Both the position numbers and the translations under genes were made by a program. Below are positions 21,820 to 37,692 of a stretch of DNA of 64,000 nucleotides, one piece after another; position 1 is the stretch's first letter; the number at the start of each line of letters is the position of its first letter. The stretch is from Raja brachyura (lineage: Eukaryota): the NCBI GenBank assembly GCA_963514005.1, contig OY740810.1:20026001-20090000 (forward strand). The letters run 5' to 3'. The notes beneath the pieces were generated by a model. The model did not search any database and was not told the DNA's origin. It was given only the letters and a program-made list of their open reading frames with translations.

Positions 21820-22127
21820 TTAACAGCTGGAGTGTGAGAGTGTGGCGGATATTTTCGAGGCTGCTCCTTGTTGAACTGTGCAGCAGTACGACTTCCCACT
21901 GCTCTTGACTGCGCCGCCCACCGTCAGGTAGATGCTGAGACTGAAGGTGTTGTCCGGGTCCCGCCTCCCTGCGTTGGTTTGCACCTCACTGCTCGGCGGA
22001 CTCCCGGCCACTGCCCAGCTGACGGTGGGGAAGCCCACGGACCAAGCAAAGGTGCTCGCTCCTTTAGCGGACATATCCTCGTCTGATGGCCACAGCAGTT
22101 TCACTGAAGGGCCGTGGAGCTGCGGAG
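21820..22127 (-). pseudogene. Sigma C exon of cluster B, ORF open but first domain Cys lost
   Basis: Intact acceptor; 308 nt versus 323 nt; APQLHGPSVKLLWPSDEDMSAKGASTFAWSVGFP...SYCCTVQQGAASKISATLSHSSC*; 3' UTR homologous to cluster A. Confidence 0.9.
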
Positions 22128-22454
22128 CTGCAAGGGACAAGAGAATACATGTTACAGTGTGTGGGGGGGGGGGGGGGCTCCTAACAAATACGGGGCAGAA
22201 TGTGTGACAGGGCCTCGTTCCTTTCAGCTGATGGAGACCTTGTCTAGACAGAAGCATTACAAATTTGACACACCTATTATTTGGGGATCCGTTTTTTAAT
22301 GTTATTCTTTACAAGCGGGGTTCTCATCAACCTCGCCCCACCTCACCCCAACCGAGGGTGGGAGAGAGGTAAAAACTGAAGACGGGCTGTGAGCCAGGAA
22401 AAGATTTTTGGTAGAAAGCTGACACGAAAGTTAAGGAAATGAATAACACACTCG

Positions 22455-22737
22455 GCGGCCGAGTTGCTACCTTACCAGAGACCTAGGTTCGATCCTGTCT
22501 GTCTGTACGGAGTTTGTACCCCCCCCCACCCCCGTGACCGCGTGGGTCTTCTCCGGGTGCTCCGGTTTTCCCCCACACCCGGTTTGAGGATTGAGGGTCA
22601 ATTGGCTTCGGTAAAAATTGTAAATTGACCCCTAGTGCGCGTGTCGGGTAGTATTACTCTGCAGGGATCACTGGTGGGCACGGACTAGGCGGTTGAAGAG
22701 CCTTTTTCCGCGCAGTATCTTTAAAATTCTAAAACTC
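22455..22737 (+). mobile_element. V-SINE in cluster B J-C intron
   Basis: V-domain core present. Confidence 0.8.
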
Positions 22738-22882
22738 GAAGTGCTCGGTTTTAAACTCCCCCGGAACAACCGCAAACTTCTTAAACGAGGCAGCCCAAGA
22801 GATGATTGGGCATTTATACAAATATTTTATTTTACCCAGTGGAGATATTTCAAGTCGCGTTTATTGCTATGCGCACAATTAC

Positions 22883-23943
22883 TAGCAATGTTACAAAATG
22901 TTGATATTTTAAAAATCAAGTCTGCAATTTATCCCATCAAATAAAGCATAAAAATAAGTTTAATTTGACACCTAATTCACTTTCATATTTTCAGTATTAA
23001 AAAGGTTATGGCCATTTTTATACTCGGTAATTAGCATCTTGTTCTCTATTGCCTTTCCATTGGCTTAACTCAAAAGCTGTGATCTAGGACAGTCAAAAGC
23101 CCATAGCTTTCTTAAAAATTAAGAGAACTGAAATAAATGTTCAGTTATTATAGATTGAAGCATTCTGAAACAAATATGAAACAATCTTACTTGGATGACC
23201 TGAAATTAAAGCATATAATTAGTTAGTTACCCAATTGTAGCTAATTACAAAATTCAATTACCAGACCTAATCATCTATCCATTTCTTAAGATAATTTTTT
23301 TTTTAAAGCCTAAGTGTCCAAATAACATTCACACAAGAATTCACAATATAACATGATTTTTAAATCTCATTGTCATGAATTTATAGGCCAATTGGAAGGA
23401 ATTTAGTGTTTAATGCCCGTAAATTAATGGGCATTTAAATCAGCTTGCGAGTGGGTTTTTATGGGACGAGATGGATTGGAACGTTCGGTTGCGTGAATTT
23501 AACCCCCATTTCGGCAGGAGAAATACTGCCGGTTCGCATGGGGAATAAGTCACCGTTTCGGAACATGAAAGTTTAATTAAGGTCATCTTAACAAACAAGT
23601 TTATATGAAAAAATAAACGGATTTCCTTTACCTGTCCCCGACCTAAAATCCGTCCCCATTGTCGGCGTTCACGGCATTAGAAGCTAATTTTTACTTTACT
23701 CCAGCGCTGAAATAGTAGGGCGATTAAAAAAAGAAAATCGCATACTGGCAGTCGGAAGGAATCTCCAGCAAAAGCTCGCACTCCGAGAAAATATAATTCA
23801 GGAAGGTAGGGGAAAACTGCATTTCAACCCCGCCCCATCTCCCCCCCCCCCCCCCCCCCCCCCCTCCTCAAAGGCGCAAAGTCGCGCACACGGCCAGTGA
23901 CAGACCTGCAGCCCCGCTGAAGGTACATTTTGTAACATACATA
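22883..23943. mobile_element. About 1.05-kb non-autonomous TIR element, copy 1
   Basis: Termini TAGCAATGTTACAAAA / TTTTGTAACATACATA; inverted homolog of 30780-31812. Confidence 0.82.
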
Positions 23944-24049
23944 ATAAGTACGGGGAGGTGGGTAAAGGTACAACAAAAATCTTCCATGCAGCAGCATCAC
24001 AGGCACAAACTCACTAAACGAAATATCAAAAATGTGAAAATCAAGATAT

Positions 24050-24430
24050 TAGACAATAGACAATGGGTGCAAGAGCAGGCCATTCGGTCCTTCGAGCCAG
24101 CACCGCCATTCAATATGATCATGGCTGATCATCCACAATCAGCACCCCGTTCCTGCCTTCTCGCCATATCTCGTGACTCCGCTATCTTTAAGAGTTCCAT
24201 CTAACTCTCTCTTGAAAGCATCCAGAGAATTGCCCTCCACTGCCTTCTGGGGCAGAGAATTCCACAATCACAATACTCTGGGTGAAAAAGTTTTTCCTCA
24301 TCTCCGTTCTAAATGGCCTATCCCTAATTCGTAAAGTGTGGCCCCTGGTTCTGGATTCCCCCAACATCGGGAACATATTTCCTGTATCTAGCGTGTCCAA
24401 CCCCTTAATAAATTGATATGTTTCTATAAG
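24050..24430 (-). mobile_element. CR1 3' end
   Basis: Highly similar to 4505-4880. Confidence 0.88.
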
Positions 24431-24819
24431 AGTTTTCGCCTGCTCCTTAACGTAATTCTTGCGTCTGCGCTGCATTCCCAGCCCTTTGCCGCGTTTGCTA
24501 AATTAAGGGAGCGCACCAGGAAAGGCTTCACGTCGCTCTGGCCCATGAGCAATTGATACAAGACCTCTTTAAAAACTCACATTATAAAATGTAATATAAA
24601 TACATTCCCGCCATTGTTAAGCAAACAGTTTAATAGTGTTGGAAATAGATACAACATGCTGGAGTAACTCAGGGGTCAGGCAGCATCTCTCGAGAAAGGG
24701 GATATGTGACATTTCGGGTCGAGACCCTTGTTCAGACCGAGAGTCTTGCAAGAGGGGAATTAGAGGTATAAAAGGGCACACACAACAAAAGAATGGAAGG
24801 TATGAGAGCACAAATCAAA

Positions 24820-25066
24820 GTGGCACAGTGCTAGAGTTGTTGCCTTTCAGTGCTTACAGCGCCAGAGACCCGGGTTCGAACTTGATCTGTACGGAGTTTG
24901 TATGTGCTCCCCGTGGGGTTTTCTCTGAGATCTTCAGTTTCCTTCCACACTCCAAAGACGTACAGGTTTGTTGGTCCCTAGTGTGTGTAAGATAGTGTTA
25001 CTGTGCGGGGATCGCTGGTCGATGGCCCGAAGGACCTAATTTCCGCGCTATACCTCTAAACTAAAC
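24820..25066 (+). mobile_element. V-SINE, internally deleted
   Basis: Head, partial core and CTAAA tail. Confidence 0.75.
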
Positions 25067-26107
25067 CATGATCGAGGAATGTTGGAGACCATGGTTTGTG
25101 ACCGTTGGCTGTGGAAAAGGATGACAACGAATAGATACAACAATGAAACTAGCAGGGCGGCTGGAGAAGTAGCGTTGTGGACATAAACTGCAAATTAACC
25201 ACATCCATTAATTCAGCACCGCTCTCCATTCAGCCTTGGAAAATAATTCCAGATAGTCTACATCAACTGTTCAAAACACCAGCAAAAGTTGTTTAAGGAA
25301 GGTGATAATCGCATTGCAAAGTCATAAAACGACAGAATTGGTTACTTCAACTGGACCAAAGAATAATCCAGCACTTATCACCATAATAGTATAAACTAAT
25401 TAACAGCCAGTGCAAAATTAACAACACAGAACATTTATTGCATGTTAAAAAGCTGAAGCAAATTTCCCAGAAATTTAGTGATAAAGCAGGAGAAGCAGGA
25501 ACATTGTTAAATTATACAGAATTAACGTTTCAGGTCGGAGTCGTACAGTCTCGAACCTGACACGACAATCGTTTCGCTTATACATGCTTGCAGTATTTGC
25601 AGCATTGATTTGATATTTCTAGCATTTATGTTTTTTTTAATTCTCATTAACTGTGGTAATAACATTTGATCCAATTTGTGATTCCAGCTGCCAAGACAGA
25701 TGTGTACAGCAATCCGTTCTTCCCCCGCACAATTAAAGCATGGAATAGTCTCCACCCTACTATAGTTGCCCAACCAGATGCAACTAAATTTAAGGTAGCT
25801 CTTTCTTCCCAAAAACCCTTTCTGGCTTAAGTCCTCCCTCCACCACCTCCAGTTTAAATTCCATTTGGAATACTTTGGAGGACCAAGAAAGCAAGAACCA
25901 AGATAGCAAGTAACACGGCCGCACCGAGTGAACAAGAGCGGGACGGAAAACACTGCCAAGTGTAATCAGCATTTCAATAGAAAAATACCATTAGTCGGAC
26001 GCAATGAAAGAACCCAAACGGAGTGAACAATTGTTAACAAGTGCTAACCACAATGACGCTTAGAAATGGCAGAAAGAATCTCCCGGCCACAGGGCTGAAA
26101 CTTATTA

Positions 26108-26699
26108 AGGGCCTGTCCCACCAGCATGCAACTCTATGCGATTAGCGCGACCTAACGTGGTCGCTTGAGCCGTCCGGCATCACGGGGCTGGTCCCACTTC
26201 GATCGCCGGAGCCGTGCGGAATTGTGCAGAGTTCGTCCCGAGTTCGTCCCAACACCGCGCGGGGCTCCGAAAAACTACTAACAATGTCCAAAAATTCCGC
26301 GCGGCAACGGCTTGTCGGCTCGCAGTCGCCTCGACATTTACACACCGCCCCGACATCGTGCCTCCGTGAACCTATTTGTAAGTGCCTCCGTGACCCACTA
26401 TGTATGTGGCTCCGTGGCCCTGTGTGTGTGTGTGCCTCGGTGCCCCTCTCTGTGTGCCCCGCTCTGTCCTGGCGAACTTACCTTACTCTTTGCTCCAAGT
26501 TCGCCTCACTTTGCGCCGTGTTGCGCCACTCACCCGACCTCCGCACGGCCCCGACTGCCGGTTTGGTTGCGCTTGCCGCATGCAGGCGCATGCTGGTGGG
26601 AACGGCCCTGTACAGGGGATCACCCGACCTCCGCGCGGCCCCCGCTGCTAGTTTGATCGCGTTCATCGCATAGAGTTGCATGCTTGTAGGACAGGCCCT
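26108..26699. mobile_element. PIF/Harbinger-type MITE
   Basis: About 40-bp TIRs (AGGGCCTGTCC...GCATGCAACTCTATGCGAT), TTA TSD on both sides, GC-rich internal repeats. Confidence 0.85.
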
Positions 26700-27142
26700 T
26701 TACTGTTTGGCCTCCGGCGAACACGTAGCCTTAATTTGACAGCAGTTTTAGCATCTTGCAATAACCACATTTAGTAGCGGAAAGAAGGGTCAACACTAAT
26801 GGACGAGAAAACACATCACTAATAAATAACAAATTATTAGATGCTAAATGATTTACATATAATTGATATCAGCGGAACCAGACAATAATCAGCGTATCTG
26901 TGTTAACATGTAATCCATGTCCTCGTTAACAGCGAAAACTGAGAGGATGGGGGAGGGGGGAGTGGGAGTGTGTGGGTGAGTGTGTATGTGTGTAGATAGA
27001 TATTAAAAAAAACTCATCAGCAGCAAAATAAAACTGCTGGTTGAAATGGGCGAGGCAAGCAGCATCTGCGGAGAGAATTGAGGAAACAATTCTTCCGATC
27101 CGGATACTGCATCAGGAGCGAGTCGAAAGGATTTCCCAGACA

Positions 27143-27166
27143 CTTGGTCCCTGGTCCGAACATCCA
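27143..27166 (-). pseudogene. J remnant of cluster B (WMFGPGTK)
   Basis: Aligns to the cluster A J and its intron flank (aagg.tttcccagacac); an 18-nt deletion removes LFVT and the splice donor; no heptamer. Confidence 0.88.
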
Positions 27167-27178
27167 TCAGCTCGATCC

Positions 27179-28048
27179 AGAGAATCCAGTAATCGGAGGT
27201 GCAAAGGGACTTAGCAAAGGGAGTCTGGTTCAGGACTCCCAAAAAGTTAATTTGGAAGTCAAATCGGTAGTAAGGAAGGCAAATTCAATGCTAGCATTTA
27301 TATCAAGAGGACAGGAATATAAAAAAAAAACAGAGATGTAATGCTGAGGCTCAATAAGGCGCTGGTCAGTCCGCATTTGAAGTACTGTGAGCAAATCTGG
27401 ACCCCCCATATCTGACGAAGGATGTGCTGGCTCTGGAGAGGTTCCAGCGAAGGTTTACAAAAATGATTCCATGAATGAGTGGGTTAGCATATGTTGAGCG
27501 TTTGACAGCACTGGGCCTCTGCTCGCTGGAGTTTTGAAGTTTGAGGCGGGACCTCACTGAAACGTAGAATAGTGAAAGGCTTGGATAGAGTGGATGTGGA
27601 GAGGATGTTTCCATTAAAGGGAGAGTCTAGAACTAGAGGTCATAGGCTCAGAATTAAAGGAAGTTCTTTTAGGAAGGAGATGAGGAGGAAATTTCTGAGG
27701 GTGAAAAATAAGAGGGTGAATCTGTGGGATTCTTTGTCACAGAAGGCTACAGAGGCCAATTCAATTTATATTTTTAAGGTGAAGAGAGACAAATTCTTGA
27801 TTAGAACGGGAGTGAATGGATATGAGCAGAAGGCAGGATAATGCGATTAGGAAAATGGGATTGGAAGGCAGAGGTCAGCCATAATTGAATGGCGGAGTGG
27901 ACTCAATGGACCGAATGGCCTAATTCTACTCCTAGAACTTGTGCACTGATTTTAGATGATCAGCGATGATCACATTGAATGGCAGTACTGGCTCAAAGGG
28001 CCCAATGGCCTCCTCCTGCACCTATTTTTCTATGAACTTGTGAACTTG
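27179..28048 (+). mobile_element. 5'-truncated CR1 LINE inserted antisense into cluster B V, with a second CR1 3' end nested in its tail
   Basis: VQDSQKVNLEVKSVVRKANSMLAFISRG, KGLDRVDVERMFPLKGESRTRGH; (AACTTGTG)n tail interrupted at about 27945-28033. Confidence 0.9.
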
Positions 28049-28204
28049 AGTAATGGAGGACCCGCTGAGGATTTGTTCCCAGTGAATGCTTACACTAATT
28101 AACATAATTGCCATCCTTTATATCGATGCTACATTTCAATGGGGCCGTGTCTCCTGGATTCACCGACACGGTAGCAGGTTGAGTCAGAGTCTGACACTCT
28201 TCAG
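28049..28204 (-). pseudogene. 5' half of sigma V exon, cluster B
   Basis: EECQTLTQPATVSVNPGDTAPLKCSIDIKDGNYVN*CKHSLGTNPQRVLHY; the conserved Trp codon is TAG; truncated at CDR2 by the CR1 3' tail. Confidence 0.92.
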
Positions 28205-28307
28205 CTGCAAAAGAGCAGGAATTCAACTTTAACCAATGACTCTTTAAAATGACCCCAGGAGCCCACATCACAACCGCTGGCGGGGCAGACTTGCCGTCTG
28301 TATTTAC

Positions 28308-28340
28308 AGCCCAGCCACTGCCAGAGATCAGTGTCCGCAT
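28308..28340 (-). pseudogene. Leader exon of cluster B, frameshifted
   Basis: Aligns to the cluster A leader with 11-nt and 2-nt deletions; 33 nt (phase 0 instead of 1); donor GTAAAT. Confidence 0.88.
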
Positions 28341-28415
28341 GGCTGCTGCCTTCAGCTCCCTGCCTCACTCGAGCCGCTGTGACAGACTGTGGACGCCGCT
28401 GCCGATGGAAACCAC

Positions 28416-34820: not shown

Positions 34821-35143
34821 TTAACAGCTGGATTGTGAGAGTGTGGCGGATATTTTCGAGGCTGCTCCTTGTTGAACTGTGCAGGAGTACGACTTCCCAC
34901 TGCTCCAGTCTGCGCCGCCCACCGTCAGGTAGCTGCTGAGACTGAAGGTGTTGTCCGTGTCCCGCCTCGCCACGCTGGTTTGCACCTCACTGCTCGGCGG
35001 ACTCCCGTCCACTGTCCAGCTGACGGCGGGGAAGCCCATGGACAGTTTACTGACCAGGCAGACTAAGGTGCCCGCTCCTTTAGCGGATATCTCCTCGTCT
35101 GACGGCCCCAGCAGTTTCACTGAAGGGTCTGGGAGATTCGAAG
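34821..35143 (-). CDS. IgL sigma constant exon, cluster A (intact)
   Basis: Acceptor tcttgttcccattgcAG; ASNLPDPSVKLLGPSDEEISAKGAGTLVCLVSKLSMGFPAVSWTVDGS...DNTFSLSSYLT...YSCTVQQGAASKISATLSQSSC*. Both intradomain Cys, the Trp and the terminal interchain Cys are present; in frame with J. Confidence 0.96.
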
Positions 35144-36680
35144 CTGCAATGGGAACAAGAGAAGATAAGTTTCAGGTGACGGAAGAGCTCGGTCATCTCA
35201 GCGTTTGACAGAAGCGCGAGTGAGAGGTTGCAGCCTCCTTTAGTGGGGCCCCGAGTCTCACTGAGGGACGGAGCGGTGCCCATGGAGGTCGCCGCATGGA
35301 TCAACACTGGGGAACTAGAGATGTGAGGCAACGTTTCTGTTCTAGGGTCCTGCTGGCAACTCGCTGGTTCACAGCATCAGACGCTCGGTGACCTCACCAC
35401 CACTCCCGGGTTTACCCCGGCCTGTGCACATGAGCTGATTGCGGGAGAGTCCCACAATAGCTTCACGGCCTCAGTGCCTCGGGTTAGTGAGGGAAGGGAT
35501 CCATGATCCCACTACCGACCTCCAACCAGTGACCCCTCGCTCTGGGACCAACCCAGAGTGCTGGCGGGGAATCTCCTCCAACTGGTGAGGCTTTCCGGCA
35601 CCGAGTCATGAACGGAGCCGAGCCACACGCAGGAACCAGAAGGGCACACTCACTCACCGAGAATGTGCCCACTCACTGAGCCGCTAGCTACACGTTCCCC
35701 CTCTTCCACCTCTTCCCTTCGCCCCACCCCACCCATCACTGATGTCCCCTCTATCCCCCCCCCCCCCCCATCCCCCCAACTGCTGCCGGGAGAATAAACA
35801 CATCTCTAATTCTGCACTGCCCCAGAGAGCGAGGACAGCGGCTGCGCCCTGCTGAGCTTCACGGAGCTGGACAGAGCAGGGCGCTCTGTGATCTTTGACG
35901 GTGCCGAGGGATTCGTGTCCCATTCACTGTGAGGGAGGGCAGGTGCGATTCTCCACAGACCCGGAGCTCCGGCTCAGTCGGTGCAGCGACGGCAATGGTT
36001 CCCGCAAAGGAGCGGCGGTCAAGGGGATAGTTGGCAGGAGAGGAGACAAGGACTGGGGGACGGGAGAGGGGCATTTATTGGGCGGGTGCGTGCGGGAGAG
36101 TTCCGTCGTCACCGGGAGGATTGGAGTTTCCGTGAAATTCCGGGGGTGATTCCGCTGTGGGATCCTCATACAAGAACGTGAAACTTATAGTTCCACTGCC
36201 TCAACAACCCCGGGCTGTCTCCAGTCGCCAATGTTCTGTCCCCACCTTGAAACCGGACCCCACTTTAGGAAGCTGGGACCCCTCACGTTCACTTGGATCA
36301 AACCGGCACAAAGCGGATAAACTAACGGGAGTAACACCGCGCCAACTCAGAGATTAAGTTAGTCTCAGAAACACAATATTCACAAGCACATGCAGAGACA
36401 GAGCAACAACACCACAAAGAGAATTGAATAACCGAGAGTGTACCTATTTGAAATATCAAATAAGCTTCACGGAATGGAGAATTTGGTCATTAAAATACAG
36501 TAACAATTGGAACATAACTATATTTATTTGTACTGGTGCTGGACACAGAACTCAAATGGATTGCAAAATAAAAAAATTCTCGATAAAATTAGCCAGATAA
36601 TAATAAAGGTTAAAGTATTAGTTGCCAACTGGCCGTATTCTCGCCGTTAGTAATTGCGGGAAGGTTTCCCAGACACTTAC

Positions 36681-36717
36681 CTGTAACAAAGAGCTTGGTC
36701 CCTGGGCCGAACACCCC
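36681..36717 (-). CDS. IgL sigma J segment, cluster A (GVFGPGTKLFVT+g)
   Basis: FGxG motif, 37 nt, phase-1 donor ACAG|GTAAGT, heptamer on its 5' side; about 380 bp from the V end. Confidence 0.96.
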
Positions 36718-36756
36718 CACAGTGTGTGATTCCAGCTTCAGCCCTGACTGTTATTC
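36718..36756 (-). other. J recombination signal: perfect heptamer, nonamer unrecognisable
   Basis: + strand CACAGTG at 36718-36724 abuts J; after 23 bp the sequence is CTGTTATTC (2/9 match to ACAAAAACC). Confidence 0.7.
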
Positions 36757-37073
36757 CGGGCCCTGGAATCGGACAGAAAACACGGCCAGACGCTCCAGTT
36801 TCCGCATGAAAGTCGACTTCACACATCCCGAGTGTCCCCGCCGGTGTGGGGCGGGAAGGGATGAACTCACAGCCGCATCGCCAGGCTTGACATTAAACTG
36901 CAACGAATCCCGGCAGTGGGCGGCGGGACTCTGAAACTTCAAGAAAAAAGAAATATTTAAATTGCAAAGTATATATATATAAAGGATAAAATTAAAGCGA
37001 CTTTGTGAAGAATTGAAGATTAGAATGTTTTCATCGATTCAAAGATGTAAAGTGCATCATGTTTCTTGCCTCC

Positions 37074-37101
37074 AGTTTTTGTTTTACCTTCTCTCACTGT
37101 G
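37074..37101 (-). other. V recombination signal, 12-bp spacer
   Basis: Minus strand CACAGTG-agagaaggtaaa(12)-ACAAAAACT directly after the last V codon. Confidence 0.97.
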
Positions 37102-37427
37102 ACAGTAAGTACTGCTCGCTGTAAACCATTTCATACAGTAATAGACGGCAGCGTCATTCACCTCCGCCTTGCTTATGATCAACTGGTAAACGGTGGCGGC
37201 GCTGTTGGCTTTCGATGTGAAACGGTCGCTGCTAAACCCAGACCCATAGGTCGGGGCGGCGTGTCCGTGATAATACCGGAGGATCCATTGAGGAGTTGTC
37301 CCCGGTATTTGTTTGTACCAAAAAGAATATCCGGTATCCTTTATTCCGACATTGCATTCCAGCGTGGCCGTGTCCCCTGGATTCACCGACAAGCTCGCAG
37401 GTTGGATTACGGTCTGACACTCTCCAG
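37102..37427 (-). CDS. IgL sigma V exon, cluster A (intact, unrearranged)
   Basis: Acceptor ttctactttacAG; GECQTVIQPASLSVNPGDTATLECNVGIKDTGYSFWYKQIPGTTPQWILRYYHGHAAPTYGSGFSSDRFTSKANSAATVYQLIISKAEVNDAAVYYCMKWFTASSTYC. Both Cys and the core Trp are present. Short CDR1, long YYHxxxxPxYG CDR2 and YYCxKWF resemble sigma V regions as I recall them from Xenopus. Confidence 0.95.
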
Positions 37428-37531: not shown

Positions 37532-37577
37532 AGCTCAGCCACAGTGCCAGAGACCAGAAAAAGCACAGCGTTTGCAT
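37532..37577 (-). CDS. IgL sigma cluster A leader exon (MQTLCFFWSLALWLS+t)
   Basis: ATG at 37577; 46-nt hydrophobic exon ending in phase 1 at GTAAGT; 104-nt intron to the V acceptor; splices in frame to give MQTLCFFWSLALWLSSGEC|QTVIQ. Confidence 0.93.
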
Positions 37578-37653: not shown

Positions 37654-37692
37654 TTATAGAGCCATCCACCCAGGAAGCAAATGCGTGCAAAT
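37654..37692 (-). promoter_or_regulatory. V promoter, cluster A: octamer variants and TATA
   Basis: Minus strand ATTTGCAC (37692-37685) and ATTTGCTT (37682-37675), Ets core CAGGAAG (+37671), TATAA (37658-37654) about 80 bp upstream of ATG; ATTTGCAC, Ets and TATA are also kept in cluster B. Confidence 0.75.

Follow-up and report, generated by a model that had tools for sequence, protein, structure and literature searches.

The J recombination signal of Ig sigma light-chain clusters in Raja brachyura pairs a perfect heptamer with a degenerate nonamer

Weak recombination signals and germline joining of light-chain segments are both known phenomena, and a decayed sigma J signal is a variant of a known signal. 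In the mouse Igk locus, V-kappa 12-signals recombine with IRS1, which is an isolated heptamer (PMC2118853), the nonamer has been described as enhancing cleavage without being absolutely required (PMC10536018), and a strong signal is reported to pair with convergent CAC motifs at a very low level (PMC11153149). IRS1 deletes C-kappa and is described as flanking no coding segment (PMC2118853), whereas in the sigma clusters studied here a productive gene can be reached only through the J heptamer. The sigma (L2) J signal of teleosts belongs to the same isotype and has the same 12/23 polarity, with a 12-signal at V and a 23-type signal at J (PMC11223323), but a torafugu table places a canonical nonamer at 23 bp (PMC5241823). 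The sterlet sigma gene (IgL4) resembles the skate locus in having a J that is described as carrying no functional signal (PMC5985310). It differs in that V and J-C are separate genes, with J spliced to the leader (PMC5985310); in the sigma gene studied here V, J and C lie together and intact, and splicing from the leader to J would be out of frame. In skates and sharks, the germline joining of light chains is attributed to RAG-like excision in germ cells that removes the signals (PMC2192082, PMC2193156), including that of shark kappa, for which germline joining by RAG is described (PMC2193156). The joins cited in these reports cover types I to III, whereas those that appear in an organism designated E are of sigma. 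Our literature search retrieved no account of a decayed sigma J signal or of joined sigma genes; figures by Criscitiello and Flajnik (2007) and by Iacoangeli (2017) may show J signals of elasmobranch sigma.

The stretch of Raja brachyura DNA analyzed here (64,000 nucleotides, referred to as the window) contains an intact Ig sigma light-chain cluster on the minus strand, with single V, J and C segments (Table 1). The V 12-signal faces a 23-type signal at J, of which only the heptamer is complete, and the cut-to-cut distance between V and J is 384 bp. The C exon is 80% identical to the nurse shark sigma chain ABO64184, and a whale shark chain belonging to a different isotype reaches 50%. The nurse shark sigma chains ABO64184-ABO64188 match the V exon at 61% identity and share the 11-residue junctions of skate chains, and the nearest named proteins are from skates. 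Pairwise identities of V and C thus favor the sigma isotype proposed in the preliminary description. No further J was found between V and C of the window cluster, and its J, which has a perfect heptamer, is the sole intact J there, as had been claimed; a broken J remnant lies near position 27160.

Table 1. Features of the sigma locus, numbered from the first nucleotide of the window
Feature	Position	Strand	Remarks
J heptamer CACAGTG, perfect, pointing upstream of the minus-strand gene	36718..36724	+	7/7 identical in cluster 2
Putative decayed nonamer ACTGTTATT, 22-bp spacer	36747..36755	+	Register scoring
J segment, open, with GT donor	36681..36717	-
V 12-RSS, heptamer 7/7, nonamer 8/9	37074..37101	-	28/28 identical in cluster 2
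V exon, sigma type, open	37102..37427	-
Leader exon	37532..37577	-
C-sigma exon, open	34821..35143	-	80% identity to nurse shark sigma ABO64184
Nonamer-like ACAGAAAAC, 7/9, 48-bp spacer	36773..36781	+	Compatible with chance
Imperfect inverted repeat, 11/13, 8-bp perfect core	36723..36775		Not significant; core broken in cluster 2
Third sigma cluster, pseudogene	21820..28400	-	V stop, J remnant, diverged C

The heptamer adjoins the J coding end, begins with CAC and matches the consensus at 7/7 positions. The 22-, 23- and 24-bp registers behind it read ACTGTTATT (3/9), CTGTTATTC (2/9) and TGTTATTCC (3/9), and the V signal is CACAGTG-12-ACAAAAACT (37101-37074); both a perfect J heptamer with three poor registers and a near-consensus V signal had been described at first reading, and both stand. 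An A-rich nonamer at 23 +/- 1 bp is lacking in both intact clusters: the A-tract is absent, and the match is 3/9 for the window copy and 5/9 for cluster 2. A best-of-three score of 3/9 or less occurs at 62% of window positions, which places the J nonamer at background level, while the signals that were read beside split IgH and TCR segments of the same genome score 6-9/9. When signal strength is expressed as match counts, the J signal of the window reaches 7/13 and the V signal 12/13; a published filter regards scores of at least 9 as strong and admits spacers of 12 or 23 only (PMC11153149). A metagenome scan returned just two fish-like sigma Js (contigs L086 and L087), both with a canonical J signal at 13/13, and a V-length protein search returned one shark fragment. 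The J heptamer is the only perfect convergent heptamer in the V-J interval. A genome-wide search for the heptamer-plus-J pattern gave 46 matches versus 59 in the control, with no J among the 30 loci read; the remaining 16 of the 46 include the two sigma Js.

A second intact cluster (cluster 2) lies 28 kb away, just beyond the end of the window, in opposite orientation and with the same arrangement. Leader, V, J and C are open and GT/AG sites are present in both intact clusters, unlike in a pseudogene. Their V exons are 87% alike with differences concentrated in the CDR regions, and the nonamer register agrees at 8/10 positions. Upstream of the J signal, a GC-rich stretch of 150 bp (36782-36930) is identical at 144/149 positions, against 122/140 in the V-proximal half of the interval. 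The flank is thus conserved as strongly as the signal, and the match between the paralogues could stem from recent duplication or conversion. The third cluster is a pseudogene whose V contains a stop and is cut off near 28050 by unrelated DNA, and whose J remnant has no heptamer and no donor, the donor having gone when a short stretch between two AAG repeats was deleted. An octamer-like ATTTGCAC (37685-37692) upstream of a TATA-like box is found in the window cluster and the pseudogene and is deleted in cluster 2 (L005:3140-3150).

An orphan sigma J with a heptamer and a remnant nonamer, 84% alike, was located on contig C7 (L009:5566-5660). At the 22-bp register, cluster 2 reads ACAGTTATC and the orphan copy ACAGTTGCC, both 5/9 and both starting with ACA, and the window copy has lost one base more than either. 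The D segments of the IgH clusters in the same genome also have 22-bp spacers. These matches suggest that a nonamer with a 22-bp spacer decayed in place. The flanks of the orphan J occur as loose ends in contigs of three other organisms (B, C and D), so this copy predates their split. About 110 bp downstream of the orphan J, and in reversed order, there is a weak match of 40 nt to the V end (E 0.033).

Contigs from 4 of 21 listed runs were compared over 36560-37200. Organism B provides one contig with 0 differences over 36675-36816 and a second with 8 differences plus 1 gap, which is as many as cluster 2 should show. Both versions are also present in organism C, with 3 differences in one contig and 7 differences plus 1 gap in the other. 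Organism D yielded one contig with 9 differences and no gap, and probably carries the same decayed signal, judging from the 6 of 9 differences that were itemized. The A at 36749, the place where the remnant nonamer of the window copy has lost its further base, is likely ancestral, because it is found in B, C and D. Since the same decayed signal occurs in the paralogue, in the orphan copy and in contigs of other organisms, the decay of the nonamer is older than the split of these species. The degenerate signal is real, long-standing and lineage-wide, and the suggestion that the gene was recently crippled does not hold, given that both intact clusters, the older orphan copy and other organisms all carry it.

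The contigs of organism E show a different state of the locus. In one of five DNA-like runs, the V-J interval is mostly uncovered and V is linked to J in two contigs, at 36714>37110 and 36715>37108, with both signals gone and 0-8 nt trimmed. Missing coverage would prove nothing by itself, but these two contigs contain the joined form. As read from the table of joints, the two are in frame, have an 11-residue junction and differ from each other. Their depths of 26.8 and 22.1 compare with 26.6 and 23.3 for the contigs of the J-C intron, and one of the joined Vs is of the cluster 2 type. These data, from one run presumed to be DNA, fit germline joining of both sigma copies by RAG. The orphan copy is absent from the contigs of this run.

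The J signal of both intact clusters is probably still used by RAG, at low efficiency. RAG would bind the near-consensus V 12-signal first, as suggested by work in the mouse, and would then capture the convergent J heptamer 384 bp away inefficiently and with little nonamer contact, deleting the intervening DNA. A weak signal compensated by proximity, one of the two possibilities offered in the preliminary description, is consistent with this predicted course. Database chains bear on it as well. A complete spliced L-V-J-C chain, cleanly joined, is encoded by a Logan contig of 1136 nt; leader and C are identical to a little skate model and V differs at 6 residues, although the chain could come from a germline-joined gene. 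In both little skate gene models the translation continues through the J heptamer region, so that, at the level of protein models, the sigma genes of this species would be split. The RefSeq models of thorny skate include two isoforms that differ only at the junction. Precise joints at the heptamer are found in DNA of organism E and in one database chain, and these joints and the database chains are indirect signs of use, all from sources other than Raja brachyura. Against use stand the background-level 3/9 of the window copy and its 7/13, below the cut-off for strong signals.

The other light chains of this genome are in a different state. V and J are joined at 27/27 other light-chain V loci examined (19 on C30 and 8 on C29 and C47), which come from a list of 37 non-sigma light-chain C exons, and all 11 V matches on C29 and C47 run through J. 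The loci on C30, C29 and C47 are presumably lambda and sigma-2, labels that we assigned from similarity and known motifs. A shark kappa-like query gave matches of 45-48% at most, to C30 loci, among the 150 of 505 candidates that were scored. A table in PMC5985310 lists kappa as undetected in little skate, whose type I genes are reported as all joined (PMC2192082). With the other loci examined joined and kappa not found, no split light chain besides sigma was detected. Since those loci are germline-joined, somatic junctional diversity in light chains would depend on the weak J signal alone, and sigma would rank as a minor isotype.

The most serious alternative, though one that we consider rather unlikely, is that the signal is effectively dead and sigma no longer rearranges. 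The open clusters would then be relics, preserved by little elapsed time or by conversion, and the light chains of the skate would in practice be entirely germline-joined. The background-level nonamer, which scores lower in the window copy than it does in cluster 2, agrees with this, as do the third cluster being already a pseudogene, the uniformly joined state of the other V loci examined and the loss of functional signals described for sterlet sigma (PMC5985310). A dead signal is harder to reconcile with two divergent clusters that are both open, with their differences concentrated in the CDRs and their V signals identical. Moreover, the clusters are kept across Raja brachyura (organism A) and organisms B, C and probably D, and joined skate sigma chains are present in the databases.

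V and J might instead be joined by RNA splicing, from a GT at the V end to an AG upstream of J, giving a longer CDR3 with no involvement of RAG. In a simulated splice, an AG 26 nt upstream of J opens the frame in both clusters, and two little skate models have such a form. This AG has no pyrimidine tract, however, and an acceptor near 36763, which looks better, leaves the frame closed; shark models bridge the interval likewise, which likely reflects a habit of gene prediction, and the junction in the single Logan chain is clean. Together these points make splicing improbable. Read on the minus strand, the stretch at 36763-36782 is acceptor-like, with a CAG after a pyrimidine tract, the latter being the minus-strand reading of the nonamer-like ACAGAAAAC; it is kept in both clusters and may serve sterile J-C transcripts.

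It is more improbable still that the 7/9 match at 48 bp is the true nonamer, displaced by an insertion and brought back within reach by a hairpin or loop. The match and the 8-bp inverted repeat before it had been singled out in the preliminary description; their positions are correct, but neither can be told apart from chance and a remnant nonamer occupies the 22-bp register. The element recurs in cluster 2 with a spacer of 49 bp, and a stem of 9-10 bp can be drawn in both clusters. Nonetheless, a 7/9 match arises by chance in about 10% of cases within 53 registers, and the perfect repeat (36728-36735/36763-36770), which was evaluated post hoc, in about 1.5% within 48 bp. Folding z scores are -0.33 for the window and -0.68 for cluster 2, and no significant tandem duplication was detected in the spacer (p 0.10 and 0.38). 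The hairpin and displaced-nonamer readings were rejected as not significant. Removal of the stem would leave about 5 bp rather than 12 or 23. In cluster 2, C and D, position 36734 has changed from A to G with no compensating change, and the orphan copy retains the 22-bp remnant but lacks the 48-bp element. An assembly error or a recent private mutation, in favor of which nothing was found, can be practically dismissed, since the contig of organism B is an exact match from another organism and study and the paralogue is in the same state, which refutes the misassembly that had been considered.

If the heptamer-only signal is indeed used, skate sigma would be a natural, productive antibody segment operating on a nearly nonamer-less signal, and would put to the test whether proximity and a strong partner can replace nonamer binding. 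Tentatively, skates may be abandoning light-chain V-J recombination, with lambda and sigma-2 fused, kappa lost, the heptamer-only sigma signal still used by RAG in several species, and both sigma genes fused in organism E, which would be a jawed vertebrate left with no rearranging light-chain gene. The stages from split to germline-fused light chains are visible among close relatives, and they point to a vertebrate with possibly wholly inherited light chains. As a separate observation, the IgH clusters of this genome (L072, L073, L075, L084, L085 and L074) occur in several states, some with V and D joined and D and J split and some fully joined, and one V signal among them has a spacer shortened to 13 bp.
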